Positions 6,082 through 22,058 are shown, counted from the first letter of the stretch. The stretch is DNA of 64,000 bases from Methanobacteriota archaeon (GCA_963719035.1 CAVRAO010000002.1:141507-205506); one strand, 5' to 3'. Notes: generated by a model not told the origin, from the sequence alone. Numbers and translations are program-made.

Positions 6082-6190
6082 AGAAAGCTTTAATATCAAT
6101 CCCCAGCGTAGTAAGCTGTGCTGCGTCAAGCGGCCTTTACGCTTGTGCATGCCCGGGTAGTGTAGCGGCCAATCATGGAGCCCTGTCGAG
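6082..6190 (+). repeat. Direct repeat, left copy (attL-like): tRNA-Asp promoter plus 5' half of the tRNA up to the anticodon loop (tRNA fragment 6151-6190)
   Basis: agaaagctttaatatcaat...gcccgggtagtgtagcggccaatcatggagccctgtcgag matches 11727-11834 at ~95% (about 5 mismatches and 1 indel). It diverges immediately after the anticodon-loop core. Confidence 0.8.
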
Positions 6191-6215
6191 AGCCCCTCCT
6201 AATTTTGAGCCCCTT

Positions 6216-7334
6216 TTGACTACACCAGGCATTTGCGGAACTCTTAGTCCTTTTCACTTCGATTTCGTGAGTGATAAGATACGCACCATATATACTACCG
6301 ATTCAGGGAACGGTCACAGTCTTGATTCACTTCAATTGACGTTTTCGCGGGATCAACTTATCAATTACAAGAAATGGCGTATAGAAGGTCTTGATCGGAA
6401 AAGCAGCAATTGGATGAACAAGGCCGCTGAGATTGTTTGGCACGGCACGCATGGCGTAATCTGTAAGCTAACAATGGACGCGGTGCGTGACGTTGCTTTA
6501 ACCAAATACACGTGCGTTTATTCAAAACGTAAAGTGCTATGTTTTGCTAAAGGTCTCCTCAAGTATCTTGCCAAAACCACCTTCGACACTCGCTTTCAGG
6601 CATTTGAACTCTTCTTGGAGATGCCTAAGGTCCTCAAAATTCGTAAGCATGTTACAAGCCGCATTGTGACTAAGGAAGACATTGAAAATGTGCTAAAAGC
6701 GATTGAACAGGCGTTTAGCATCGGGCGTATTGATAACGCTCACTATCTAAACTACAAAGCGATAGTGTTCTTTGGCGCGTTTACGGGTCAGCGACCTTTA
6801 GCGACAATAGCAAGATTAACTGCGCGACAATTTGAGGAAGCGGTGAAAATGAAGAAACCGGTTGTTGATGTTCTCCCGTGGCAAGATAAGATTCGCATGC
6901 AGCATTATTGCCCTCTCCACCCGCAAGTCGTTGAGGCTGTAGAACCTGCGCTGGAAGTTAGATTCGATGACGAGCGTGTTTTTGAGCAACTGTCCTTTCA
7001 AGAGTGGCTTAAGTACACAGACATCCGGCTATTGCAAGGAGGCGCTCGCATTGTCAATGGAGACCTGAGGAAATTTGCAGAGCAGCAATCCGACGTACTG
7101 CAGTGGGATCAATCAAATAAGAACTACATACTAACCCACGGTGTCAGCGGGGTCGATTGGCGTTTTTACAAGCATCCGTTGCCTAAGATCGTGTATGACG
7201 TATATATGCAGTATTGGAAAGAAGTCGAGCTTTCGTGTTTAAAGTGGCCATGCTTGTTCCCGCACAACCGGCAAAAATACCATACATACCGTCATCGGCA
7301 AAAGCAAACGTTAGCCTGTGGGCTTCTTTCCTAA
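6216..7334 (+). CDS. int: tyrosine-recombinase-like integrase (putative; TTG start)
   Basis: 372 aa directly abutting attL. The C-terminal region carries candidate catalytic residues (GQRPLATIARLTARQ; LTHGVSGVDWRFY with a terminal Tyr). The assignment is mainly by position next to the tRNA att site, with only weak motif support. Confidence 0.5.
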   Translation: MTTPGICGTLSPFHFDFVSDKIRTIYTTDSGNGHSLDSLQLTFSRDQLINYKKWRIEGLDRKSSNWMNKAAEIVWHGTHGVICKLTMDAVRDVALTKYTCVYSKRKVLCFAKGLLKYLAKTTFDTRFQAFELFLEMPKVLKIRKHVTSRIVTKEDIENVLKAIEQAFSIGRIDNAHYLNYKAIVFFGAFTGQRPLATIARLTARQFEEAVKMKKPVVDVLPWQDKIRMQHYCPLHPQVVEAVEPALEVRFDDERVFEQLSFQEWLKYTDIRLLQGGARIVNGDLRKFAEQQSDVLQWDQSNKNYILTHGVSGVDWRFYKHPLPKIVYDVYMQYWKEVELSCLKWPCLFPHNRQKYHTYRHRQKQTLACGLLS

Positions 7335-7581
7335 AAATAAAAAGCCCACGGCCTTATCAAAAACGTATGTTGACGACGATATTGCCCCATGAACCCACCT
7401 GCCTGCTGAGACGATGGTAGTACTTTAAACTTAAAATTTGTGATAGCTTTTAGCAGGCGCCTATTAGCGGTCAATTCTGACCTCCGCCTCGCTGAGGCAA
7501 TCGTAAATTCATCGTTACTTTTTGCTCTACTTTTTTTGTTCTGCGAGAATGTGGAGCACAGGCTATCCCTCACTAAGCGCA

Positions 7582-8292
7582 TCAAGAGACGTGTCCAATC
7601 GGGATAATGTAAAGCGGCTGCTGGTCTGGAGGGGTCTCTAACACTTCGCGCACCATCGAGTCATCAAAGGCGCCGATCGGAACCGCTCCCAATCCCAACG
7701 ATGTACACTCGAGCAACACGTTTTGCGCTGCGTGACCAGCCTCGAGGTGGACGTAGCGCTCAGCACGTTCACCGTACTTCGTTGCGGCCCGCTCGTAGAC
7801 CCCCATAATCACAAGTTTTAACGGTGCTTGTCGTACGGCGTCCTGATTCAAAGCGGCTTTTGTCAGGTTCTCCTGCACATCCGCTGATCTGATTTTCCCG
7901 AGGCTGTGATTTAGGGGGTTGTAATGGTACACTCCTGTTACGTTCACGACATAGACTTCGAGCGGATACAGCGCGCCCGCAGACGGCACCGTTCTGAATC
8001 CTTGAGTGCTCGTGATTCCTTGAGCGGCCCAAACGAGCTGTGAGAGCTCGCTTAGTGAGATGTCAGCGTCAGTGTACTCGCGTACCGACCGCCGCTGTTG
8101 GAACGTTTCCTCTAATGACATGTTTCCTTTCAGGACTGGGTCGGGAAGCTTGATGACGTCGATGACAGCGAGGTCATGTGATACAGGCACAACTGCATCG
8201 TCGCTCTTTTGCGAGCTCAACGCCATCCACCCTATAAGAGCGGAAGCGATCACCGCAATGACCAGCGCAACGGCCAAGATTTTTTTTCGCAT
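7582..8292 (-). CDS. SagB-type dehydrogenase/nitroreductase-family protein with N-terminal signal/TM anchor
   Basis: 236 aa. N-terminus MRKKILAVALVIAVIASALIGWMALS is a hydrophobic signal/anchor. The nitroreductase-fold motifs are present (RRSVREY, ALYPLEVYVV, HLEAGHAAQNVLLECTSLGLGAVPIGAFDD). Confidence 0.7.
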   Translation of the reverse strand: MRKKILAVALVIAVIASALIGWMALSSQKSDDAVVPVSHDLAVIDVIKLPDPVLKGNMSLEETFQQRRSVREYTDADISLSELSQLVWAAQGITSTQGFRTVPSAGALYPLEVYVVNVTGVYHYNPLNHSLGKIRSADVQENLTKAALNQDAVRQAPLKLVIMGVYERAATKYGERAERYVHLEAGHAAQNVLLECTSLGLGAVPIGAFDDSMVREVLETPPDQQPLYIIPIGHVS

Positions 8293-8787
8293 CGACGTAC
8301 TCTCACGCTACACGCTTCACTTGAGAATAAGGACCTCCGCATAGTATAGAATTTATGCTTTAGCACGGCTAAGAAGAGGTGCAAAATTAGCACAAGTTAG
8401 CCCGAGTTATCCTAAACAGGTATGCAAAGCTGATAGGCAAGAACATTCATCCTCACACATTCTGGCATAAGTTTGCCATCAATAGCGTAAGGCACGGATT
8501 TGTAATACGCAGACCACCTTATGCCATTATGCTCTTCTTTCCTGGGAGCTAAGGATGTGCCTGACGACAGAACCAAATTGCCAATTAAGCCCTGGCACAT
8601 CCTCCCCCTTTGTCTAAGCAAAGACTGTGCTGACGAATTTGCGGCTGAATTTCATGAAAGAGCCAATATGTGACGGATAAGGTAGTAAGAGCAGATAAAG
8701 CTTTTTAACGACGTAAAAAGGAAAAGGAGCGCGAAACGCTCCATATTAGGAACCATTGCCGGCTTCAGTGCAGCTAAGGGTTGTGAC

Positions 8788-9081
8788 TTAAGGAAGACCC
8801 TTAATTATTGCTATTCCTTCTGCTTCTGGAAGCGCCTTCAATGTCTCTAAACTTGCCATTCCGGCGCTCGTTATCGTGAGCACTGCTTTCGCCATTGCCT
8901 CGTCGCTCGGAGCTTCAACAACTACCACCATATCATATTCCCCAAAGACAAAGTGGATTTGTTTAATCTCTCCGCCGACGGACTTGAATATCTCTTTAGC
9001 GCTTTCTATTCGTTGCGGCATGTCCTTCACTTTCTCAATTCCTGCTTGCGTAAATTTATGAAGCAAGATGTAGCTTGGCAT
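8788..9081 (-). CDS. GYD-domain protein
   Basis: 97 aa with the G-Y-D signature in FGEYDMVVVVEAPSDEAMAKAV and the characteristic ~95-aa length. Confidence 0.65.
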   Translation of the reverse strand: MPSYILLHKFTQAGIEKVKDMPQRIESAKEIFKSVGGEIKQIHFVFGEYDMVVVVEAPSDEAMAKAVLTITSAGMASLETLKALPEAEGIAIIKGLP

Positions 9082-9744
9082 TTTGATGTAGCCTCCATTT
9101 TTTTAGTAGTGAGCGTTTTGAGCGATCAGACCATTAGCGTTTGCGCTGTATTGCGCGAGAAATGTGTGCAAGAGCCGCCGTCGGAAGTGATAGAACGAGA
9201 TAAGAGCCAAGAGGTAATCGCTTCTAACTACTTCCACACCGCGCTTCCTAATCGTTTACACCCCATGTTTTACTACACTAATGCGTGCGCGACGATTGTC
9301 TCCAGGTCGATGAGCTCCTATTGCAGCTGGCGGACTACAAGAACGACTACGCGGACGTAGCCGCAGCAAAACTTTTAAAGAAGTGCTCTACCAGTTGGAA
9401 AGCCTATCGATATCTACAGGACCGCGTTCACGATGCCTGGCTGCCTGATAACGCCCGGCAGCAGGTTCGACAGATTATCAAAAAGATACAGGTGCAGATA
9501 CACCAGCAGCGCGAATACAGCTGGACGTATCAACAGCCGTGAGCGTGCAAAATAAAAGTTTTGCTAGTTTGTTAGCCATAAAACTACACGCAACAAACTG
9601 AGAGGAAGGTTCTTCAAGCAAGTATCAGCGACGAAGGCTAGGGGCACACTAAAAATTTGAGGTAAATACCCTAGTTTGGCCAAGAGTATATAAACGGCCC
9701 CTTGCCTTCGAACGTGGTTGTTATCATACGATATTTTAATACGC

Positions 9745-9762
9745 GTGACAAGTTTTTGTCAC
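9745..9762. promoter_or_regulatory. Perfect palindrome GTGACAA-gttt-TTGTCAC (operator-like site) in an intergenic region of the element
   Basis: Read directly from the sequence: 7-bp inverted-repeat arms with a 4-nt spacer, ~210 bp upstream of the small ORF at 9972. Confidence 0.3.
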
Positions 9763-9971
9763 ACATCAACGCCCGTGAAAAGTGGGCGCCCCTCTCGAAG
9801 GGTAAAGTCGACATGAAAAACTAAGGTGTAACGCTTTAAAAAATGTCTGGACCGTAGTCGCTTTTTGAAATAACGCCCAGTGTGACGTTATTATCGTCGA
9901 CAGAAAAAACCGATCACGATATTATGAGGCGTGATTCATGTACAAAGTACTGAAAACGTAGGAGGGAACAA

Positions 9972-10133
9972 ATGATTGAGAAGGGACTGATCTTAACCGG
10001 CAGCGATGCGGACGTATTGAGCAGTGCGCTTTCAGAAGTGAAAACGATAGTCTATAAAAAGGCAGGAACTCAATTAGATGATAGCCAAGCGCTCGATGCG
10101 CTCGTTTCGTATTTCCTTAATGCCGAAAGATAG
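9972..10133 (+). CDS. small hypothetical protein (53 aa)
   Basis: Strong Shine-Dalgarno GGAGGG 6 nt upstream of the ATG; MIEKGLILTGSDADVLSSALSEVKTIVYKKAGTQLDDSQALDALVSYFLNAER. Below the ORF-track size cut-off. Confidence 0.45.
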   Translation: MIEKGLILTGSDADVLSSALSEVKTIVYKKAGTQLDDSQALDALVSYFLNAER

Positions 10134-10314
10134 ACAAAAAGAGAAGTTTCACTTGTATTTTAGCCCCTTACGTAAGCGCCTGGTGCTCGGCACGATTATT
10201 GAGGGGACAGTCGTAAAGCCTGATCGTGGCCAGGAACTGCTCGATCTAAGTTAGATAGCTGGGTCATCTATGGAGTGGCATTACCTAAAAGCACGAAGTA
10301 AATGGTGACAAAAA

Positions 10315-10491
10315 ATGAACTGTGAAGAAAAACTAAAAATCCTGATGGATGCTTGTGAGAAGGCATTAATGTACGGGTGGGAAGATAACTTCAATTGGAG
10401 CAAGGATAAACCAGAAGAATTTTGGGATGAAGAAGAAGCGTGGATTGCAATAAAAGAAGCGTTTGTTAAAGTAAAAGGTGACAAAAAATGA
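10315..10491 (+). CDS. small hypothetical protein (58 aa), paralog of the next gene
   Basis: Preceded by GGTGACAAAAAATG, the same context as the next gene. MNCEEKLKILMDACEKALMYGWEDNF...VKVKGDKK. Its TGA stop overlaps the next gene's ATG (ATGA), implying translational coupling. Confidence 0.5.
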   Translation: MNCEEKLKILMDACEKALMYGWEDNFNWSKDKPEEFWDEEEAWIAIKEAFVKVKGDKK

Positions 10492-10757
10492 GTGACACAG
10501 ATAAAGAAGTCCTTAAAAAAGTATTAGAACTTTGTGAGAAAGGAATCGATCAGGCGAGAAAAGATGCAACAAATTCTGTTGGTACTGCCGAATCTTATGC
10601 GAATGGTCAAGCCGTTGCATATATGACAGTCGTTGAACTAATCATGCGTATGAAGCAAGAAGTCACTCTAGATTATAAAGAGGCGTGGGATTCTCTAGTA
10701 AACACGAAGAGCATCAAATCGATAAAAGAAGAATGGAGTGAAGGCGACAAAAAATAA
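10488..10757 (+). CDS. small hypothetical protein (89 aa), paralog of the preceding gene
   Basis: The identical upstream context GGTGACAAAAAATG, a shared CEK-helix motif and a shared ..GDKK C-terminus with the preceding ORF. AT-rich codon usage. Confidence 0.55.
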   Translation: MSDTDKEVLKKVLELCEKGIDQARKDATNSVGTAESYANGQAVAYMTVVELIMRMKQEVTLDYKEAWDSLVNTKSIKSIKEEWSEGDKK

Positions 10758-11114
10758 TAAGTGCAGCAATAACGAAAACAACGATAGCAATTACCACAAC
10801 GAAGGCGGCGGCATTCGTTTTTATAGTCAATCCTATCCTGCGTACCAGCCTCCCTGCCGATTTATGGTATTTGGACTTAAGCAGAGAGCTGGCCCCGCAT
10901 TGTTGTACAGCTAGCGCCTAGAGCAATAACGCCGTGTAGCCGCTTATTCTTCATAAATCCGTTATTCGTTTGCTGCTTGGCCACACGTGCTGACCGGGGC
11001 CTAATACAGGCTCTGACTAACTCTTTAATAAACCAGCTGCCTCCACTAGTTAAAAAACGAGTTCGGCGTCCCTGCCAAAACGAATTAATAGCAGGTCAAT
11101 TCTGGATACTGACT

Positions 11115-11507
11115 ATGGATAGTGAGGGGTCAAGAAGGAAATTCGAAAATATCGGCGATTACATCGCTACGTTTCCTAAGAATGTTCAGCACACGCTCAG
11201 GGAGCTGAGGAGTGCAATCAAAGAATCGGCGCCTGAAGCTGAAGAAACCATTAGTTATGGAATGCCCACCTTCAAGCTCAATGGTAACTTAGTACATTTT
11301 GCCGCCTATGAGAAGCATATCGGGTTCTATCCAACCCCTTCCGCCATTCTTGCTTTCAAGGAGAAATTATCCATTTATAAGCAATCAAAAGGAGCGGTTC
11401 AATTTCCAATCGATGGGCCGATTCCGTTAGATATTGTAAGGGAGATGGTCAGGTTCAGAGTAAAAGAAAATCTGACAAAAGGTGCAAGAAGGAGAAAAAA
11501 GGACTGA
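11115..11507 (+). CDS. DUF1801 (YdhG-like) domain protein
   Basis: ISYGMPTFKLNGNLVHFAAYEKHIGFYP is the DUF1801 core. The ORF opens at 10977, but the domain-sized protein (130 aa) starts at the Met at 11115. Confidence 0.6.
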   Translation: MDSEGSRRKFENIGDYIATFPKNVQHTLRELRSAIKESAPEAEETISYGMPTFKLNGNLVHFAAYEKHIGFYPTPSAILAFKEKLSIYKQSKGAVQFPIDGPIPLDIVREMVRFRVKENLTKGARRRKKD

Positions 11508-11588
11508 GACTGAGCTGACTTGTTCAAAAACGCTACTTTTATCCTCCGCTGCACTTTAACTAGAACTAACTAAACAAGAGGTGGAATA

Positions 11589-11726
11589 ATGACAGAAGAC
11601 GATAAGAACGAAATCATAAAGTGCACTGTCTCGTGCCCCGAGTGTGGTGCTGAGATGGTCTGCACGCACGAAGACCCAAAACACGAAGAGAAGCACAGGT
11701 GTGAAAAAGGCCACGTGTGGACCTGA
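11589..11726 (+). CDS. small zinc-ribbon protein (45 aa)
   Basis: GAGGTGG Shine-Dalgarno sequence upstream. MTEDDKNEIIKCTVSCPECGAEMVCTHEDPKHEEKHRCEKGHVWT has CxxC plus C/H ligands. Its stop abuts the first base of the right direct repeat. Confidence 0.45.
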   Translation: MTEDDKNEIIKCTVSCPECGAEMVCTHEDPKHEEKHRCEKGHVWT

Positions 11727-11834
11727 AGAAAGCTTTAATATCAATACACAGCTAGTAAGCTGTGCTGCGTCAAGCGGCCATTACGCTTGTGCATGCCCGG
11801 GTAGTGTAGCGGCCTATCATGGAGCCCTGTCGAG
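11727..11834 (+). repeat. Direct repeat, right copy (attR-like): tRNA-Asp promoter plus 5' half of the intact tRNA
   Basis: Matches 6082-6190 at ~95%. Confidence 0.8.
11734..11741 (+). promoter_or_regulatory. TATA-like box (TTTAATAT) upstream of tRNA-Asp, included in both direct-repeat copies
   Basis: An A/T octamer ~55 nt upstream of the tRNA 5' end. It is conserved in the left repeat copy (6089-6096). Confidence 0.3.
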
Positions 11835-11867
11835 GCTCCGACTCGGGTTCAAATCCCGACTCGGGCG
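11795..11867 (+). tRNA. tRNA-Asp (anticodon GTC)
   Basis: Manual fold. Acceptor stem GCCCGGG/CTCGGGC (one G-U pair). Anticodon stem GAGCC/GGCTC with loop CTGTCGA (GTC at positions 34-36). T-arm TCGGG-TTCAAAT-CCCGA. Discriminator G. No encoded CCA. Confidence 0.85.
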
Positions 11868-12248
11868 CTCCTTTTTTGTAATAGAGTAATCTGCAGTGTT
11901 ATTTGCTGCTAGGAATTCTAAACTGCGCTTTTCTATGTCGCTATCCTTCTTATTGCCCTTTATTTCTCGTGGTTCGCCTTTAGCGTCGCGTATATCCAAA
12001 GCTAACCTTAAAGCGCCTATCGTTTCGTCAGCACGCCTTATAATCTCGTCTTTACCCTCTAACACCGCACGCAGCCGTATTATTTCAGTATTATCCTGCT
12101 TATCAAGTGCGACAATACGACCTTCGACATAAGCAGTTAAAGCTTCAATCGTTAGGGCCGAACGGGTTACGTTATTGCTGTTCGCTCGTTCAATAACGGC
12201 TTTTAACAGCTCGGCAGGTAATGTAATAGACATACGGGATAGCGTCAT
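11817..12248 (-). CDS. ribbon-helix-helix (CopG-like) DNA-binding protein with coiled-coil tail
   Basis: N-terminal MSITLPAELLKAVIERANSNNVTRSALTIEAL is a ribbon-helix-helix signature. The C-terminal end of the ORF overlaps the 3' half of tRNA-Asp on the opposite strand, so the true C-terminus is uncertain. Confidence 0.45.
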   Translation of the reverse strand: MTLSRMSITLPAELLKAVIERANSNNVTRSALTIEALTAYVEGRIVALDKQDNTEIIRLRAVLEGKDEIIRRADETIGALRLALDIRDAKGEPREIKGNKKDSDIEKRSLEFLAANNTADYSITKKERPSRDLNPSRSLDRAP

Positions 12249-13964
12249 ACGTTCCGTATGATAATACCTTATTTAGTATTAAGCTGCCGATATCATCGCA
12301 CTCGTTCGTGTTTCTAGAAAATGTCACAAGAACTGATGGCATCAAAAAACCGGTTAAAAGTAGGTACCTGTATAGTTTTTTATAATCATAGCCGAACGGG
12401 CCGCGTGTGCGTGTTTAAACCTCGATATAACCGCCTGTTTGAAGCGATGGAATGGGCAACAGGTAACGCCGCGACTTAATCTTAATAATAGAAAAAAATC
12501 GATAAAATCCTTCTTAACTCGCGTATTGGTCCCGTCGCCTAAATATAAACCGATAGAATTCGGCGCGTGCCCTATCTGCTTAATCCTTACATTGCGGGCA
12601 TACGTTACTCGTCGTTGATACAAACTCCCAGCAATATATGCACCTATAGATGCGCTTCCAGGGTACGCCGGACGTCGTGTCCATGCGTCCCCATTTCGGA
12701 CGCGTTTTATATGCCACCGCTGCTATATTATCGCCCGCTCTCGTCGAGTTCGTTCAATAATCGCGCGTGTAGCCGCATACTTAGATATCAGTTATGTCGT
12801 TTGCATTATTCTGCGCGAGCGGCGGTAATACTGACAATAAGGGACTAAATCATTATCGCCACGCAGTTTACAATCAGCGTATTTCTCGCACTGTCGGCAG
12901 TCCATCATTTTATTCACGCCTTTTCTAGCAGCTTACCTATGTAACCGGACACCCTTATGATAGCGCAGAATCGCTAGAATAATATCATCTGGATTATCGG
13001 CGTTGATCGTGAGAGAACCGACCTTTATCGGAATTTTTTCCTTCGTCGTTTTATCGTTCATATCTATACACCATCTTAGCGCAATGCCCCCACCCTACCC
13101 TATAATTGTATTCTGACGATTTCTCCAAAAGCGTCAGCTGTACATTTGACACATGTGGCGGCGTCCGCCTCTCCATAGGCGCATTCAGAATGGAGATCGC
13201 GTAGGCAGATGTTGCTCTTCACAGTTTCAGTTAATAGTTCTTTCATTTTGTTTGACTCCCCTTTTGGTATTTTGATAGCAAGGACCTCCCTACTACCAAT
13301 AGCACCGACGACACGTCACTATGTAACCCCGCGTGACAACAACTGAGTGTCACGGTATCGACATATGCTCGCAGCTTACGCAGTAGGTCATAGTCAATAA
13401 TAGGAAAAGAAGAGTCAATTACCTACCCGGCGGGCGTATCGTGAAAGTACTAACCTGGCGGGTATCTTTCTGTACGAGAGCAATAGTAATGCAGCGTGAT
13501 GATTACGTTACGTGTTTGCGTTCCTTTACCGCTTTCGGTAGGTCAAGATATAGCTCAAACGCTTGGTATCGCGCATCAAACCGCGTCTTTGATAAGTAGC
13601 GGAAAAACGCCTTTGCGAAGTTTATTACCTTTCGCTTCGCGTAAATGTCGCTATATTTATCCAGAACGTAATTACGAAGCTCGTTTGCGGTTATCCTGCT
13701 AATTTCGCCCTTTGTATAGCGCCATAGAATATCTGCGGCCTTATTTAGCCAATTAATCGTTTTTCGCTAAGTCCTGCGATACGAAGGTTATATAATCTTT
13801 TAACTCGCTTCTCGAAAATGTCAGGTTAAGCTTATCTAGTCTGTCGCTATCGCATACGCTAGAATTAGATTGCTTTATTGAATTTTAACCATTAATAGCG
13901 TTTAATCGCCTAAATAAGCCCTGTCGAGGCTTCTGATTTTGTTCAGAGCAGACTCTTAGGAAGC

Positions 13965-14801
13965 CTAAACCTGTGGAGGGCCTCGCTCAAGCAGCTCTTG
14001 TATCCGTTGTTCTGCAGGGATTGACTGCTGCCACAACAGTTCGAAGGTGGAGGCGAGGTATTGAGCATACGTTGGGTCATCACTCCAGAGCACGCTTACC
14101 AGTTCTCTAAGCGAGGCGCGTTTTAAGTCGGCGGCATTAATCACGCTCATACCAATTTTTCCATCAAAAACGCAGAACAATAGCCCTGAGTACGTGTTAA
14201 AATGACGTACTTCCATTCCAGCGTCTAAGTGCTCTCGGATTAGCTCAATAAACGGATAAGTGACGTCAGTTATAAATCGTATCCTCCCCCCCCGGTCTAT
14301 AAACTTCTTATCGTCCTCAACAAAAAACAAGGATGAAAACACCGTCAGTATAGGGGGGACAACTGCGAACCAGTCCTTTTCAGCTGAGGCCAGGGCAGAT
14401 AGCGTTACAGTCACCACTTCTTTCATGCTCTTGAGAATTTTGTACGAGGCAATCTCACCGGCGGGCCGAAACCGCTGTTGCTCTGAGAGCTCTTGTAGCT
14501 CCTGCTTTCGCACCTCCATCTCGCGTATTTCGCTTTCGTGCCTTTTGAGCGCAGCGTCAAGAGCGGTTTCGAGGTCTACTGCTGTGTAAACCGTTGGTGT
14601 ATCGAGTGAGGGCCGCACCATACCTTTCTCGATGAGGCCGGTAAGCGTCCGGTGCACGTCCTCCCGATATGTTTTAAGAGACTTGGCGAGAGGGGAAGGG
14701 GTTTTTGGGCCGTACCTAAGCAGATGTAAGTAAAGCTGAGCCTCTTTTTCACTGAGCCCAAATTGAGTTAAACGACGGATGAACTCATCGTCCTCAGTCA
14801 T
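13965..14801 (-). CDS. TrmB-family transcriptional regulator (HTH plus C-terminal effector domain)
   Basis: N-terminal TrmB-type HTH (LSEKEAQLYLHLLRYGPKTPSPLAKSLKTYREDVHRTLTGLIEKGMV) and a conserved C-terminal motif WSDDPTYAQYLASTFELLWQQS. Confidence 0.7.
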   Translation of the reverse strand: MTEDDEFIRRLTQFGLSEKEAQLYLHLLRYGPKTPSPLAKSLKTYREDVHRTLTGLIEKGMVRPSLDTPTVYTAVDLETALDAALKRHESEIREMEVRKQELQELSEQQRFRPAGEIASYKILKSMKEVVTVTLSALASAEKDWFAVVPPILTVFSSLFFVEDDKKFIDRGGRIRFITDVTYPFIELIREHLDAGMEVRHFNTYSGLLFCVFDGKIGMSVINAADLKRASLRELVSVLWSDDPTYAQYLASTFELLWQQSIPAEQRIQELLERGPPQV

Positions 14802-15025
14802 GCGCTGCCCGGAAGGTACGTGAACTAAGCAGTAAATAAAGATTGGGTTCTGAGGTTCTGGTTAATAATAGGTGAAGTTAGGCGTTGAAAATGTGGTTTG
14901 TGAAATGGTTGGCGCGTGCCCTTCACGTTAGCTATTCATAAAAGTTGCAAAAGGGGAACCCTTAAGCCGCTAAGGTATATACACCTTTACTACATAGGTG
15001 CTCGCAGAGCACGCACTCATCTGTT

Positions 15026-15511
15026 ATGCCCCACGGATTCATAATTAACGGCGTAAAAGACGCACTTGCAGCCGCCTTAGGGATACTTGAGTCACAACAA
15101 AAAGAGGTCGCGTGGCTTGTGCCACCTTCGGTTCATTCCCTCGCAACGACCCTTGGCTTCCTTGAAGCAATGAGGGCATTTGTCAAGCGCGGCGGAGTGT
15201 CACGAGGAATAGTTGCCGTGTCGCGCGAGAACGTTGACGAGATACGAATGAGCGTAGAGAGTGGCGAGGACATTCGCCATAGTGACGCGGTGCACGAAGT
15301 CTTCATGTATGTAGGAGACAAGCAGAAGAGCGTTAGCGCGCTAAACATTGGAGTTGTGGAATTCAGGCTCGATACTCCGGTCGCTGCCTTTTGGAGTGAA
15401 GACCCCACATATATAGAGTACCTGCTCGCTGCCTTCGAGACTGTATGGGCACAGGCAATACCTGCTCAGGAGCGGATAGAGCAGTTAGAAAAAGAAAAAA
15501 AGCAGCGCTAA
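15026..15511 (+). CDS. TrmB C-terminal (effector) domain protein lacking the HTH
   Basis: 161 aa. Shares the C-terminal motif FWSEDPTYIEYLLAAFETVWAQAIPAQERIEQL with the two flanking TrmB paralogs, but has no N-terminal HTH. Confidence 0.55.
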   Translation: MPHGFIINGVKDALAAALGILESQQKEVAWLVPPSVHSLATTLGFLEAMRAFVKRGGVSRGIVAVSRENVDEIRMSVESGEDIRHSDAVHEVFMYVGDKQKSVSALNIGVVEFRLDTPVAAFWSEDPTYIEYLLAAFETVWAQAIPAQERIEQLEKEKKQR

Positions 15512-16185
15512 ACGTCATGTGCCTTTAAAGGCTCAGCTTTGTTTTTAGTCGCCGGCTGTTCTCTTGGCTCATTTAACCACACACAGAAGGCAACGTTGTC
15601 AAGCGCCTAGAACGAGTCGCTGCTTGAACTTGAGCTGCTCGAACTCGACGACAAGTTACTGCTGCTACTGCGATATGCAGAAATTACACTTCGCATAGTT
15701 TTATGACTTAAACAGTCAATTATAGGGCATCAAAAACATAACCGAAGTTGGAATAGCTACGTAAAAGCAAAAAAGCCATTATTTACGAAATAAGGGGACA
15801 TGAAGGGGATCCTGTTTTCATTATTCGATTCGACCCCGGAATACATCGTACGTCAGATGTAATCGCCGTTGGACAGATCAACCCGAGCAGCAGTTTCTAC
15901 TTTTAGAATCGGAGCCTCGCAAAGGCTCTCGCTTCTGGTCTCTGTGAGAACGCGCAAGAAAGTTTTGTGTCACGTTTTGGAAGACTACCTAGCTAGCAGC
16001 AGCGAAGCTCGCGCATAGCGCGACTGCTCGCGCAAGCAAGCAAACGATGAGCTCAAAGTCTGAACTTCAGTGTCTTTTTTGCCGTGCTGCGCGGCATCTG
16101 AGCGCCATGAGTGTGCCGAACGGGTTCTTCAAAAGATTTCAGCAAAAACTTTTTCACTTCATCGTGAGCGTACTCCTAGTACGGT

Positions 16186-17049
16186 ATGACGAGCGATGAT
16201 GAGTTTACCCTACGACTCACCGAGTTCGCATTGAGCCAGAAGGAAGCCCGGGTCTATTTTCAGTTGCTCAAATATGGGCCGCAGCCTGCAGCTGTCGTTG
16301 CAAAGCGTCTGGAGACGTATCGTGAGGACGTGCATCGAACATTGAGGCAGCTTGTTAAGAAGGGCATCGCGTGCCAATCACTGAGCAAACCAGCAGTACA
16401 CGCGGCGATGCCCCTTGAAGACGCGCTTGATGCGGCCCTGAGACAAAAAACCAGAGAACTGCGGTACAAAGAGGATGTGAAGCAAGAGCTCATCAGGCTT
16501 GCGCCGCGCGTGAGTCCCTTGCCGCTGGAAGAGTATTGCAGTTATCGGGTGGTGACTGGCTGCAATGAGTGCATCGCGGCTAGCTTGGTGCAGGCCGAAG
16601 CGGCGGTGCACGATATTTTAACGATCGGTCACCCTGCTGCGCTGGCATACTCATACAAACAAGGATTTTTCAAGACGTTTCTAGACGCAGTGGAGCACGG
16701 GGTGGAGATGCGCTTCATCCTCGACGTATCCAGTCAAGCACTTGACGCGGTTCGCGCTGCTATCGAAGGAGGGATCGACGTGCGGCATTATGAGCAGTAC
16801 CGAGGGATAATGTTCACGCTCGTTGACTCTAAGGAGAGTTTCACGGTTGTGGCGTTTGATCCGCGTTACAGTCCTAAGGACACTAAGCATACCGCATTTT
16901 TGTGCGACAACCCTAAGTACGCGCACAGACTTGCAACCCAGTTTGAGCTGGTCTGGAGACAATCGATCGACGGAACGCAGCGGGCACAAGATTTGAGGAG
17001 CGAAACTCCAGACCCCGCCTCTGACCGGTCCAGCGCGTCCACGTTGTAA
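16186..17049 (+). CDS. TrmB-family transcriptional regulator
   Basis: N-terminal HTH (LSQKEARVYFQLLKYGPQPAAVVAKRLETYREDVHRTLRQLVKKGI) and the C-terminal motif CDNPKYAHRLATQFELVWRQS. Paralog of 13965-14801, divergently oriented. Confidence 0.7.
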   Translation: MTSDDEFTLRLTEFALSQKEARVYFQLLKYGPQPAAVVAKRLETYREDVHRTLRQLVKKGIACQSLSKPAVHAAMPLEDALDAALRQKTRELRYKEDVKQELIRLAPRVSPLPLEEYCSYRVVTGCNECIAASLVQAEAAVHDILTIGHPAALAYSYKQGFFKTFLDAVEHGVEMRFILDVSSQALDAVRAAIEGGIDVRHYEQYRGIMFTLVDSKESFTVVAFDPRYSPKDTKHTAFLCDNPKYAHRLATQFELVWRQSIDGTQRAQDLRSETPDPASDRSSASTL

Positions 17050-17518
17050 AAAGTGCTTGCACGCAGCAGCAAACGTCGGCTTTAAACCGTCCGCTTGAGA
17101 ACAATAGGGTTATGTGGTGTAAGAAGTGGCAATCGCCTCACAGATTAGGTTTTCAACAGGACGTTTCCCTAATACCGCAAATAGACATTATACACGTGCT
17201 CAGGCAGCGGATGCCAATAGTTGCCACATAGGTTCTTACGTCGGAGCCTGTGTTAGGCTCCGGCTATCGTACAGAAGAAATAAATGAAGCTCGGCTATGT
17301 GTAATTCGAGCGCTTTAAAGCACGGGCGCGGTTATATTCAGTCCCATGTTTGACAGGGCCGTCTGCAGGCTGAATCATACTATAAAATTAACTTAAAAAG
17401 AAGAGAAACAAGCGGCCTCATATGCTATTGTTCACCTTACCTTAGCATGCTTTGTTCGATTGCAGTGCTGCCGCGTAGGGTCGAACGCGAAAAAGAAGAG
17501 GAACGGTTAAGCTAACAC

Positions 17519-17839
17519 GTGTGCTGCTTGCATAAGCGTATGCAATTTCGACTGGTAGTTATCGGACTCATCGTGTTGGTTATAATCGGGTTCGTAGTTT
17601 TTGTTGCAGGTTCAGTTGTCATAGGCGTAGATATGGCTATATATCCGGCGTGGATGTGGATCATTTCCCTCGTTGTCATCATTTTCCTTACCGCCATTAT
17701 CGCCGTGCTACTGGTAGGATGGCAGGATTCCCATTACGACGAGGACGCGCCTGACGAAGAACGCTACTATCGGGACCGCCGCCGCTGCGTTGCATGTAAC
17801 AGCTCTATATTAGGCAATATGCTATCCTACTTGTGCTAG
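17519..17839 (+). CDS. small membrane protein (hypothetical)
   Basis: Two or three predicted TM helices (LVVIGLIVLVIIGFVVFVAG; IISLVVIIFLTAIIAVLLVGW). The start is uncertain (alternative Met at 17540). Confidence 0.3.
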   Translation: MCCLHKRMQFRLVVIGLIVLVIIGFVVFVAGSVVIGVDMAIYPAWMWIISLVVIIFLTAIIAVLLVGWQDSHYDEDAPDEERYYRDRRRCVACNSSILGNMLSYLC

Positions 17840-18228
17840 TTTTTGGACAATCAGGGGATGTGCCTGAGCTTAATTGGCAATTTGGAGACTATTGTCAGGT
17901 ATATCCTTAGCTTTCGGGAAGCAAAACATAGGGTCGTAATGCGCTGCAGTAATATGAGGGTTGATCAAATGCCAATTGACATCAGTTGAGCCCATCACGC
18001 GGAAACCCACACTTTTACCGCAGCCCCTTACGCCTGCTTTGTATCTCTCAATTCTTAAAATGTAAATTTAAGGAGCAAAGAGCTGACGCTATTTGATAAA
18101 ATAACGCTTTAAAGGCAATGTTCTCTTATTAACTACAGGTGTGTGCTGGACGGTAGCTGGACAGTATAAACTACATACCATCCACACGTGCTTTTTGATA
18201 GAAAAAAGAAAAGGGGGCAAAGCCCCTA

Positions 18229-18744
18229 CTATGCCTTCACTACGACGGTGTGCGCTGCGCGGTCTCCAGTCCGCTGTCTCTTATCTGACGTCCAAATAAG
18301 AATTGCACCGAGCAAGAACGGAATAATGAACGGTATTGCGTCGATGATCAGCAGTAAGGAACGCACGAGTGCATCGACATAGCCAATCTTTGAACCATCC
18401 TCTTTGACCACTTTAATCTTAAGGGCCATCATGCCTACCGTCTGTCCATACGCTCCCAAGAGGAGCGTGAAATAGATGAGCACGATGAGTGATGATATGA
18501 CGCTGCCAAGTCCTGCGAGCGAATTCGCTGTGGTGGATACGTAAAAGCTTCCATTAGTAAAATTCGCGCTATTAAAGACGGGCGTTTGCAACGGATTGGC
18601 GAAAACTGACGCAATAATGCCCGCAATAATGACATCGATAAGAAGAGCTACGAATCTGACACCGACGCTACGGTACTGCAGCGGTGCTGGAGTCATTTCT
18701 GGAGCTGCGGCCATTTCAGGCGTTGGGGTCATTTCATTTGCCAT
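18229..18744 (-). CDS. RDD-family membrane protein
   Basis: Three TM segments and the R-D-D signature (DKRQRTGDRAAHTVVV). Pro/Met/Thr-rich N-terminal tail. Confidence 0.65.
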   Translation of the reverse strand: MANEMTPTPEMAAAPEMTPAPLQYRSVGVRFVALLIDVIIAGIIASVFANPLQTPVFNSANFTNGSFYVSTTANSLAGLGSVISSLIVLIYFTLLLGAYGQTVGMMALKIKVVKEDGSKIGYVDALVRSLLLIIDAIPFIIPFLLGAILIWTSDKRQRTGDRAAHTVVVKA

Positions 18745-19104
18745 TCGTTCACCTCCTTGTGGCTTTGTTGCCTAATTGTGTGTTTGGTAGGTAAAAACCT
18801 ATGGATGGGATACGGTACCTGAACGAGTGTCCGTTCTTTTCAAATTTTGATAACGAAGAGAAGGGCACCGCGGAGCTAGGCTTTGCGACTATCTGTGCCC
18901 CCTTGCCTTTCGATAATCGTACCTAGCACCAGGCGCTTACGTAGGGGGCTAAAATACGAGTGACGTAGTCCTTTTTCCTACCCAACATTCACAGCGCTTC
19001 TGAAGCACGAAACGAGCTCATCGAGTGCCTGCGCATCCCCAGGCTAGCTTTATGCTCGAGAAGTACTGTAAGAAACAGGTTACGGAAGCTGAGGAACATA
19101 TGAA

Positions 19105-19608
19105 ATGAGTATCCTTGTAAATGTAACAATAAGCATAATTGTTCTGGTAGTAGCATACATCATAGCTTCTCTTTACTATCCTATGCTGGCAGGAGGCGCA
19201 GCATATGGTCGTACTCCGAGGAAGATTGTAGCTGAGGCTCTTAAACTGGCAGACCTTAAAAAAGATGAAGTCTTCTACGACCTTGGATGTGGGACAGGAG
19301 AAGCCCTTATAGAAGCCTCAAAGTTATGCGATCATGTGAAGGGAGTTAAGATAGGGCCTATTCGATGGTTTATAGCCAAGCTTAGAGCAAGAAAAGCCAA
19401 AGTCATTCTAGGAAACCTTTTCAAGCAAGACATTTCTGACGCTGATGTTATATTCATATTCCAGTACCAAGGAAGGATAAACAACAGAATCGTGATGAAA
19501 ATAAAGGCTGAAACACGAAGCGAAACAAGGATCATAAGTTATTTGCACCCAATAGAAGATATGAAGTTCGTCAAAAGCCAAAACGAGATTTTCATTTACA
19601 AGACATGA
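19105..19608 (+). CDS. class I SAM-dependent methyltransferase with N-terminal TM anchor
   Basis: Motif I VFYDLGCGTGEALIEAS. N-terminal hydrophobic helix. AT-rich codon usage. Confidence 0.6.
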   Translation: MSILVNVTISIIVLVVAYIIASLYYPMLAGGAAYGRTPRKIVAEALKLADLKKDEVFYDLGCGTGEALIEASKLCDHVKGVKIGPIRWFIAKLRARKAKVILGNLFKQDISDADVIFIFQYQGRINNRIVMKIKAETRSETRIISYLHPIEDMKFVKSQNEIFIYKT

Positions 19609-19841
19609 AAGGATCTGTCAACTCTTTAACAAGGCGTCTGCTGCCACCGGAGGGCATCTGTTGTTTCTGCTACGGTAGGGGCGTTGGTCGTAGCCTGTAT
19701 TAGGCTCCGGTTGCTGTGTTGAATTAGTTCGTCAGAGCGTTCAGAAATAGGTCGGAGCTCAATAGGCCTCCACTGACGTGGAATTTTGCAAATAGTCTGA
19801 AAGAAAAAACATAATGTAAACTAAATTACGAGATTATTCTG

Positions 19842-20637
19842 ATGCACAAAAAAATGAAAGAAAATACATTAAATTGTGGTAAAATGCAAGAAACAGACCT
19901 CTATCTTACCATATTCCAACGGAAGTCCGTTAGAAAGTACGATTTAGACCCCTTCGATGAAGATACATTAAAGGAGCTCAGAGAGCATCTTCAAACTTTA
20001 AAACCGTTGCATAAGGACATTAAAATTGAATTTAAGATTTTATCTCCCGATGCTGTTATAAGAAGGACGATGAGAAAAGCACCGCACTATATAGCTGTTT
20101 TTGCAGAGGTAAAAGAGGGGTATCTAAGCAACATAGGGTTCATGCTACAGCAGATGGATCTATTATTTTCTGCTAACGGATTGGGTAGTTGCTGGCAGGG
20201 GATCCCTACTCTCAAAAAAGAAGGTTTGGCAAGTTCACGTCTGAAATTTATCATGTTAATGTACCTTTGGAAAGCCCCAGGAAACATTACACCGAACAAA
20301 AACTTCCCAATTCAAAAGAAAATCGCTCCAGGAAATAAGTGACATTAAAGGTGCAGATGATTTACTGGAAACAGCTCGTCTTGCTCCTTCTGCACGTAAT
20401 GCACAGGGGTGGTTTTTCACTGGTGATAAAGATTTAATTCATGCATATTACCGTAAACCAAGCTTCATTGCGGGACTTTTAACCAAAAAATATCCTCCCA
20501 TGGATGTGGGAATCAGTCTTTATCACTTGAAACTTGGTGCAGAACATTTTGGCAAGGAAACTGAGGTTATATTTGATAATCCGGATGGCAATACTCTCAA
20601 TGATTATGAGTATGTTGCCAGTTTGCGCTTAACATAA
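19842..20637 (+). pseudogene. nitroreductase-family gene with apparent +1 frameshift near 20300-20340
   Basis: Frame A (19842-20342) has RKSVRKY and GLGSCWQG motifs. The +1 frame continues ...SDIKGADDLLETARLAPSARNAQGWFF... to the TAA at 20635-20637 and has no start codon of its own. Confidence 0.5.
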
Positions 20638-20837
20638 TCAAATGCCCCATTTGTTCTCCGGTGGTTTCTACCAATCTTTCGGCTCCGGTCAATGTCTCGA
20701 ATTTGGACGAAAAAACGTCCTGATGTGAGTCAGTCAGAGTCCCCACCAGGAAAGTAATTCTCACTGTAGTTTTCCGGCCGATTTTGAAGCGAAAATCTCC
20801 GAATACGTTTTTCTAAGTTGAATACCGATAATCGTGC

Positions 20838-21548: not shown

Positions 21549-22058
21549 GGCGATCAGAAGATGGGGCTCTGGCGGAGCATGTCCATGTCGGTGACGTAGC
21601 GAGCTGCCTCTCCACGATGAGGTCTTGCCTGCCCTTCAGCTGCAGCAGGACCGCCTGAGGAAGCTCTGGGATTCATTCTATAAGTTGCTTAAATCTCACT
21701 TCTGCCCAATACTGCATATAAACATCATAGACGTTTTCAGGCAACGGATGTTTATAATGCTTCCAATCGATTCCACTCACTCCGTGCGTCATAATATACG
21801 CTCGGTTTGAATGATCTCACTGAATACCGTCGCCATATTGTTCGTATCTTAGCGACTTTTAGCAGTTACAAAGCTTTATCGTAGTTCGTAGTGATTTACT
21901 ATGGCTGCTAAGCATGCCACAGCCGACACGGCATGCTGCGAGTTCATAAGCTATTCATTTTTGTGTAGGGCTTCCCTACGGGTGATCCCCGTAGCCTGTC
22001 GCGCTTGCGCTGAGGCGGGCATGCAATTCTCAAAAAGAGATAAGGAGGCGAAGCTAAG

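Follow-up and report, generated by a model that had tools for sequence, protein, structure and literature searches.

A mobile element at the tRNA-Asp gene of an uncultured archaeon from peat, with an integrase gene probably split by integration

Introduction

How did a tRNA-Asp(GTC) gene in an archaeal chromosome come to be preceded, kilobases upstream, by a second copy of its own promoter region and 5' half, and what became of the integrase gene that lies beside this copy? The question is raised by a 64,000-nt stretch of DNA (hereafter the window; Methanobacteriota archaeon, GCA_963719035.1, CAVRAO010000002.1:141507-205506) from an uncultured peat archaeon, in which a preliminary description, made from the sequence, had recognized an integrated element between two direct repeats. 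We consider it very probable that positions 6191-11834 of the window represent an integrated mobile element of 5.6 kb, which entered the tRNA-Asp(GTC) gene by means of a tyrosine recombinase that carries the attachment site (att) inside its own gene and was split on integration into an N-terminal part, int(N), and a C-terminal part, int(C).

Integrases that split themselves, referred to as type I or "suicidal", have been reported from archaea only, where they fall into the SSV, pTN3-like, and pT26-2-like groups (PMC8371274, PMC7253208). All of them carry the domain PF16795 and form one monophyletic superfamily (Superfamily 25_02), and they are characteristic of hyperthermophiles, barring five Methanosarcinales members (PMC8371274; PMC7253208). 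Self-splitting integrases have so far been described almost only from hot-spring and deep-sea archaea, and the literature of 2020-2021 treats their persistence as a paradox. The split mechanism is already known; the enzyme family, its hosts, the promoter-bearing att, and the flexible use of tRNA halves described here appear to be new.

Results and Discussion

Integration site in the tRNA-Asp gene

The left and right repeats, attL and attR (Table 1), differ by four mismatches and one 1-nt indel (95% identity), in agreement with the boundaries and the approximate identity first described, and each comprises tRNA-Asp positions 1-40 plus 68 nt of upstream DNA. The 40-nt 5' half of the tRNA occurs twice in the window, against zero copies expected from 100 dinucleotide-preserving shuffles, and the 3' half is present as a single copy. 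ARAGORN predicted one tRNA in the 64 kb, tRNA-Asp(GTC), and the Rfam model RF00005 matched only 11795-11867 (54.5 bits); the fragment in attL was recognized by neither, so both programs agree with the earlier statement that only the right copy contains a complete tRNA. The repeats end at tRNA position 40, which is the first base 3' of the 7-nt anticodon loop.

The left flank carries aRF1, hypC, hypA, and hypE, which identify the host as archaeal. Metagenome contigs were scanned for an empty site, composed of the hypE end, ~141 nt, and an uninterrupted tRNA-Asp anticodon region, and one contig (L079) was returned. It belongs to a close relative, whose aRF1, HypA, and HypE share 97%, 98%, and 93% amino acid identity with those of the window (HypC is also within the 93-98% range), and hypE is directly followed there by the promoter box and a complete tRNA-Asp. 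This region matches the reconstructed host site attB (the window minus 6191-11834) almost base for base, and the left side of attL is the same hypE flank as in the empty site. The presence of the empty site in a close relative indicates a genuine insertion, and the original proposal of a site-specific integration into tRNA-Asp, with repeats made of promoter plus 5' half, is thereby upheld through comparison with related genomes. In other relatives, the same site is filled by different DNA and cargo (e.g., L002), and some carry decayed att copies beside hypE and more copies downstream. The tRNA-Asp site is a hot spot that has been struck repeatedly.

The last difference between attL and attR is located at 6171, and the identity between attB and the att of the element, attP, ends at tRNA position 40. 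Strand exchange most likely took place in the anticodon stem-loop ATCATGGAGCCCTGTCGAG, which fits the crossover in or near the anticodon loop suggested previously. The anticodon loop is the usual overlap region of tRNA-targeting tyrosine integrases (PMC8371274).

Three of the five differences between the repeats are specific to attL, being absent from attR and from the native site of L079, and these changes fit the decay of a displaced copy. Repeat divergence had been read as a sign of an old insertion; this is unsafe in general, because the arms of attP and attB can differ from the outset, but it is plausible here in view of the three attL-only changes. The lower guanine-cytosine (GC) content ascribed to the DNA between the repeats holds in comparison with the left flank (0.460 versus 0.532) but not with the mean of the whole window (0.472), and GC content was therefore dropped as a sign of foreign origin.

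Each repeat starts exactly at a box resembling the B recognition element (BRE) and TATA box, AGAAAGCTTTAATATC (6082-6097 in attL and 11727-11742 in attR), and the mature tRNA begins ~55 nt downstream of it. Conservation of the box extends to all six aligned att copies, including the attP-like copies situated within the open reading frames (ORFs) of L001 and L003, and the leader 3' of the box is more variable. After integration, the promoter, the leader, and the first 40 nt of tRNA-Asp are all element DNA. It would seem from these alignments that the box was retained to keep the tRNA expressed, and the restored tRNA-Asp is presumably transcribed from element DNA. In this way, one stretch of DNA would play three roles, as a recombination site, as a promoter plus RNA gene, and as a protein linker.

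A tyrosine recombinase recognized by its fold

The int(C) ORF immediately inside attL begins 26 nt past the repeat and comprises 372 codons, from TTG at 6216 to 7334; its first in-frame starts are TTG 6216 and GTG 6267. Searches of the int(C) protein against Pfam, PHROGs, NCBIfam, and the PDB (phmmer) found nothing, and a profile of 35 family sequences detected no recombinase by sequence in the PDB. None of the 35 members matched PF16795 at E <= 10, and two of them matched PF00589 weakly, the best E-value (0.0095) being short of the cut-off. The AlphaFold2 model of int(C) has a predicted local distance difference test (pLDDT) score of 78.6, and a Foldseek search with it retrieved XerA, lambda Int, Cre, Tn1549 Int, and XerH, followed by topoisomerase IB and protelomerase, the matches being almost exclusively tyrosine recombinases. 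The two-domain fold of DNA_BRE_C, which consists of core-binding and catalytic domains and is shared with topoisomerase IB, is present in the predicted structure, and int(C) is, at the level of the modelled fold only, a tyrosine recombinase. The assignment made earlier from C-terminal residues is borne out by the fold, while the sequence libraries contribute nothing to it.

The candidate catalytic residues, numbered from 6216, are R193, K225, R285, H308, and Y318, whose roles we take to be those of the corresponding motifs of lambda Int, with TGQR as box I. In the family alignment, R193 (in TGQR) and K225 do not vary, R285 (in DLRK), H308, and Y318 show at least 90% conservation, and the His-II-equivalent position is G282. 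The full-length enzyme would presumably be active. As well, the int(C) of the window is ~30 codons longer (7238-7334) than most homologues, which end in ...YWKEVEL[ST]C, and this C-terminal extension may have arisen through a lost stop codon.

Probable split of the integrase gene

For the reconstruction of attP, the right end of the element was joined to the sequence after attL. In the resulting junction, one frame stays open from 11620 across all of att and on into the 6216 ORF, and the other two frames are closed. The reconstituted window protein was then used as the query of a homologue search and the matches were aligned; some homologues cover 86-93% of the query, and their N-terminal parts hold the translated tRNA segment (...SPGSVAAYHGALS...). 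P0004 and P0007 run into the host hypE flank and are integrated copies, in which the ORF call extends out through attL. P0002, P0006, and P0008 are further uninterrupted genes with the tRNA segment inside the ORF, and P0041, which also encodes the conserved N-terminal domain, contains within its ORF 47 nt that match tRNA-Asp perfectly in antisense orientation, with neither a tRNA gene nor a second att within 10 kb. The uninterrupted family genes and the in-frame junction of the window place attP within the integrase ORF. Moreover, in all 11 sequences of the subfamily that uses the tRNA-Asp 5' half, the frame is open from att across ~45 poorly conserved codons into the conserved domain, with no frameshift.

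The same layout was found across the family. Among 74 genomic loci surveyed from a species-representative genome collection, every locus with a repeat pair has one copy adjoining the start of int(C) and the other kilobases off at the tRNA gene, and the att-int(C) arrangement recurs independently at dozens of loci with other tRNAs. Of 16 reconstructed attL/attR junctions, 13 have an int frame that reopens 130-500 nt upstream of the att end, and nine have one that is open for at least 220 nt upstream of the att start, for which the random expectation is ~0.03 per junction (binomial tail ~2e-10). The int(N) pieces at the far ends of the elements share a domain with the pattern YPxIRLP...G...IYxT...G..AFLVV, followed by a coiled-coil-like stretch, and the reconstituted int(N) parts match one another in tblastn with E-values down to 1e-23. 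Because this conserved domain is parted from the rest of the gene by the whole element, the integration is of type I ("suicidal"). The integrase had been described as intact, not split by att, and integrating in a pNOB8-like mode, which is contradicted by the far-end ORF that joins the 6216 ORF in frame, by the family-wide occurrence of the N-terminal domain at the far end, and by att copies inside uninterrupted genes.

Indels in the att copies located within ORFs (L001 and L003) are multiples of three, whereas the displaced host attL has a 1-nt indel. In P0002 and P0008, the conserved promoter box is read in different frames and the same frame is regained on both sides, i.e., the frameshift is compensated. 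The indel pattern and the compensated frameshift point to selection for an open frame across att. In the full-length model of P0041, the N-terminal unit and the core-binding domain are connected by a low-confidence segment (residues 65-135), which holds the att-encoded peptide, and the flexibility of such a linker would explain why tRNA sequence is tolerated as coding DNA. The N-terminal domain has no significant match in Pfam and low AlphaFold2 confidence; by analogy with arm-binding domains, it is tentatively called DNA-binding-type.

Tandem arrays are also present at related loci (L002, 9540-10287 and 15218-15962; L001, 3862-5226), where the middle att has the older element's int(N) in front of it and the newer element's int(C) behind it. 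This arrangement yields apparently full-length chimeric integrase genes in the chromosome (P0008 and P0002), which resemble the split-gene reconstitution model proposed for pT26-2 integrases. L001, with a terminase gene upstream of a full-length int, was also considered as a free virus with attP, and this was rejected because tblastn with HypE showed that the contig starts with hypE and is a chromosomal tandem array.

According to the proposed mechanism, the free circle would encode, in order, the N-terminal DNA-binding-type domain, the coiled-coil-like stretch, the attP-encoded linker, the core-binding domain, and the catalytic domain, and the attP of the subfamily would repeat, over 108 bp, the promoter box and leader of the host tRNA-Asp together with tRNA positions 1-40. 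Recombination with attB, probably in the anticodon stem-loop, would leave behind the host's promoter and 5' half, as attL, just upstream of int(C), and would fuse the promoter and 5' half of the element to the host 3' half, by which a functional tRNA-Asp would be restored. The int(N) part would end at the far side of the element, reading into attR, and the integrase gene would thus be split. In the window, int(N) would later have lost its N-terminal domain, with ~71 codons left.

Alternative explanations

Several observations weigh against a gene split by its own integration. Three of the 16 reconstructed junctions do not reopen far upstream. In the tRNA-Asp 5'-half subfamily, the N-terminal domain upstream of att is broken by a stop codon or frameshift in L001, L003, and both L002 copies, which leaves the functional start of the full-length protein tentative, and no free circular copy was found. 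In the window itself, a plausible zinc-ribbon ORF overlaps the int(N) remnant in a different frame, and the part of int(N) upstream of att aligns weakly to other int(N) sequences. Finally, int(C) is uninterrupted over its 372 codons and has in-frame TTG and GTG starts, and the segment 293-319 of its model, including H308 and Y318, has low pLDDT.

These observations leave room for a reading in which the split layout is right and int(C) is nevertheless alive, transcribed from the displaced attL promoter and translated from TTG 6216 or GTG 6267, with a role as a truncated recombinase (e.g., in excision or inversion with related elements) or as a domesticated enzyme. The ORF has stayed intact while the int(C) of the element on the 3' side of the tRNA is full of stops, and a promoter box lies 120 nt upstream of it; some residual or independent expression of int(C) downstream of the displaced tRNA promoter may therefore occur. 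Truncated suicidal integrases, however, were reportedly inactive in vitro (PMC8371274), and the C-terminal extension of ~30 aa relative to homologues may mean a lost stop codon, so that a live int(C) appears unlikely.

We regard it as quite improbable that the integrase is of the pNOB8 type (type II), i.e., that the gene is complete at 6216-7334, with att just outside it, and stayed intact and active after integration. The uninterrupted codons and the two in-frame starts would suit such an enzyme, the interruption of the N-terminal domain in all tRNA-Asp subfamily copies seen means that the shorter protein could be functional, and in L079 an in-frame ATG immediately precedes the conserved region of the family member. 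This reading leaves unexplained why the frame is open from att into the conserved domain in all 11 subfamily sequences and crosses attP in the reconstruction, why an int(N) domain lies at the far ends of the elements, and why uninterrupted family genes span att with compensated frameshifts that preserve the ORF across it. That no integration took place at all, the DNA upstream of the tRNA having undergone segmental duplication and the ORF being unrelated to the repeats, is hardly credible, since nothing beyond the existence of the repeats favors it. It is refuted by the empty site of L079 and the recombinase fold of the adjacent ORF, and the recurrence of the att-int(C) arrangement with other tRNAs also speaks against it.

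Features of the element and its surroundings

The features of the window element, taken here as an integrated element with a split integrase gene, and those on the 3' side of the tRNA are listed in Table 1.

Table 1. Features identified in the window around tRNA-Asp(GTC); positions are counted from the first nucleotide of the window.
Feature	Position	Strand	Evidence and remarks
attL	6082-6190	+	109 nt; displaced host promoter box, leader, and tRNA positions 1-40; not a functional tRNA
Likely crossover segment	6172-6190	+	anticodon stem-loop; equals 11816-11834 in attR
int(C)	6191-7334	+	core-binding and catalytic domains, tyrosine recombinase (predicted fold); frame open from att
Nitroreductase/SagB-type dehydrogenase, 236 aa	7582-8292	-	Pfam PF00881, E = 7e-37; NCBIfam TIGR03605, E = 2e-36
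GYD-domain protein, 97 aa	8788-9081	-	Pfam PF08734, E = 9e-28; homologue inside the related L033 element (tblastn)
Four small ORFs	9285-9542, 9972-10133, 10315-10491, 10488-10757	+	no known domains
DUF1801-domain protein, 176 aa	10977-11507	+	Pfam PF08818, E = 1e-15; 85% amino acid identity to L072
Zinc-ribbon-like ORF, 45 aa	11589-11726	+	stop codon adjoins att; in place of the int(N) N-terminal domain
int(N) remnant	11620-11834	+	~71 codons, reads through attR; without the family N-terminal domain
attR	11727-11834	+	108 nt; element-borne promoter box, leader, and tRNA 5' half, joined to the host 3' half
tRNA-Asp(GTC)	11795-11868	+	chimeric: 5' 40 nt from element, 3' 34 nt from host; ARAGORN
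int(N) of second element, 143 aa	11817-12248	-	intact ORF, ribbon-helix-helix (RHH)-like N-terminus; same integrase family
Decayed int(C) fragment of 3'-side element	13446-13789	-	contains a stop codon; tblastn E = 8e-29
Anticodon-loop junction copy, 15 nt exact	13917-13931	-	blastn-short 15/15, E = 0.003
Further decayed int(C) fragment	17109-17219	-	3'-side element

The four small ORFs have no significant match in Pfam or PHROGs, and they recur (tblastn, 47-81% identity) at loci carrying the same integrase family (L033, L026, L051, L071, L074, L015, L039, L062, and L013). Homologues of the zinc-ribbon-like ORF with 78% identity are present in L002 and L030, away from any att. The att-encoded part of the int(N) remnant aligns with the N-terminal regions of long homologues, and the N-terminal domain of int(N) was not detected in any part of the window. 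The element has neither replication nor structural genes. It looks like a trapped remnant, which, by all appearances, would need a related integrase acting in trans in order to leave.

A second element of the same family adjoins the 3' side of the tRNA. The C-terminal peptide YSITKKERPSRDLNPSRSLDRA of its int(N) is the antisense translation of the tRNA-Asp 3' half, and this ORF has weak RHH matches and matches P0041 residues 38-126 in tblastn (E = 1e-12). In a search of the window for a second tRNA 3' half that would bound this element, only the 15-nt remnant was found. DNA located directly 3' of the tRNA in L002 reappears in the window at ~19692-20693, which indicates that ~7.8 kb of element remains are inserted at 11817-19665. 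Another C-terminal fragment of the integrase family (21676-21843, minus strand; 56 aa, 64% identical to P0041, with one stop codon) is situated on the far side of a nitroreductase gene, with which the native 3' flank is recognized. In L079, a different family member, 39-51% identical, lies at 8625-8982, ~95 nt past the tRNA-Asp; besides the in-frame ATG in front of its conserved region, it seems to have a frameshift at a later point.

A 278-aa ORF at 13965-14801 (minus strand), TrmB-like by eye only, recurs in more than 15 other loci of the integrase family (e.g., L024, L025, L028, L049, and L067), often in tandem or partial copies, and it may be a regulator typical of these elements.

Distribution and targets of the integrase family

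The integrase family comprises at least 720 clusters at 50% identity, and its hosts are mesophilic peat, wetland, and digester archaea of the Methanomicrobia lineage. Examples are metagenome-assembled genomes from peat, bog, and fen ("bog_38", SPRUCE, and Microflora Danica genomes with 7-9 copies each) and Methanoregulaceae, as well as the cultured Methanospirillum lacunae and M. purgamenti. In M. purgamenti J.3.6.1-F.2.7.3 (NZ_CP075546.1), attL occupies 2527594-2527638, int(C) 2527720-2528616, and attR 2537390-2537434, the last inside tRNA-Val(TAC); in M. lacunae Ki8-1 (NZ_CP176093.1), attL lies at ~2112198-2112245 and attR at ~2104595-2104642. A few members are found on contigs binned as Acidiferrales, Verrucomicrobiae, or Bathyarchaeia (L031, L042, L051, L070, and L077), one of which (L051) has a tRNA-His-linked repeat; these contigs may be mis-binned archaeal DNA or may reflect a wider host range.

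The att within int takes various forms, including the tRNA-Val 3' half in antisense, the tRNA-Asp 3' half in sense or antisense, and the tRNA-Val(TAC) 5' half, and the variants were seen across L024, L028, L049, L054, L060, L061, L067, and L069; L011-L014; L033, L038, L075, and L076; and L047. In L047, the tRNA-Val(TAC) 5' half plus 189 nt of upstream DNA forms a 229-nt repeat that is 98% identical, and the layout is that of the window. From these att sequences, the target tRNA and the orientation of att appear to have been switched repeatedly within the family. As well, L011 carries an exact inverted copy of the tRNA-Asp 3' half (9885-9920, plus strand, and 17626-17661, minus strand) 7.7 kb downstream of the tRNA, which could be the trace of an inversion by the integrase between oppositely oriented elements, of the kind reported in Thermococcus for TKV2/TKV3.

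The family was seen on no catalogued virus or plasmid, as a scan of IMG/VR with the family alignment gave no confirmed locus and neither the INPHARED phages nor the PLSDB plasmids yielded a tblastn match. Our literature search found no paper describing the family, and some JGI records label members "integrase". It might conceivably be the Pfam-less "fam30-08" of PMC8371274; among the entries of its supplement covered here, the Methanospirillum and Methanoregula integrases are all XerA-type. Because Pfam, NCBIfam, and PHROGs detect neither these integrases nor their split halves, mobile elements are under-called in peat-archaeon genomes. The cultured Methanospirillum members make int(C) activity, the escape of trapped elements, and chimeric rebuilding directly testable.

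Comparison with known integrase systems

We give about even chances to a second origin of "suicidal" integration, independent of or unrecognisably diverged from the SSV, pTN3, and pT26-2 integrases, in which an attP placed in a flexible linker, tolerant of almost any sequence, would have let the family swap tRNA pieces. If true, this would contradict the published view that suicidal integrases arose once, as an adaptation of hyperthermophiles. With the same layout in mesophilic hosts of the methane cycle, adaptation to heat would no longer account for it, and it may have had more than one origin.

The family shares with pNOB8-type (type II) and bacterial lambda-like integrases the tyrosine recombinase fold, with core-binding and catalytic domains, and the tRNA target. 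However, those enzymes stay intact with att outside the gene, while here att lies inside and the gene is split.

The layout in the window is that of the SSV type (type I, "suicidal"), without the sequence membership in PF16795 or Superfamily 25_02. SSV1 Int of the Fuselloviridae matches PF16795 (E = 1.5e-61) and carries the D-335 N-terminal domain PF07935, neither of which is matched by the family, and hhalign gives a probability of 0.12% between SSV1 Int and the family. In its predicted fold, the window protein is no nearer to SSV1 Int than to lambda Int or XerA. Moreover, SSV1 integrates into the 3' part of tRNA-Arg, whereas the window element uses the 5' half of tRNA-Asp.

Similar to the pT26-2 type of Thermococcales, Archaeoglobales, and five Methanosarcinales (Badel et al. 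2020, PMC7253208), the family shows the suicidal layout, several copies per genome, tandem integrations, chimeric int genes rebuilt from int(N) of one element plus int(C) of another, and switching of the tRNA target. Unlike the family, which has no detectable sequence relationship to them, the pT26-2 integrases carry PF16795 and target tRNA 3' ends.

The closest known system is the pTN3-like one (IntpTN3, TKV-type, of Thermococcales; Cossu et al. 2017, via PMC8371274), and an attB made of a tRNA 5' half has been considered unique to pTN3-like enzymes among archaea (PMC8371274). Both systems have attP inside the gene, the split into int(N) and int(C), and a tRNA 5' half as attB; int(C) is left downstream of the displaced tRNA promoter, and the restored tRNA is expressed from element-borne DNA, as would presumably be the case here. 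The family differs in that it lacks PF16795 (none of the 35 members) and resides in mesophiles rather than in hyperthermophilic Thermococcales, and in that other members use tRNA 3' halves in either orientation. Finally, the integrase promoter of pTN3 drives the tRNA, whereas the 108-bp att of the tRNA-Asp 5'-half subfamily holds the tRNA's own BRE/TATA-like box and leader.

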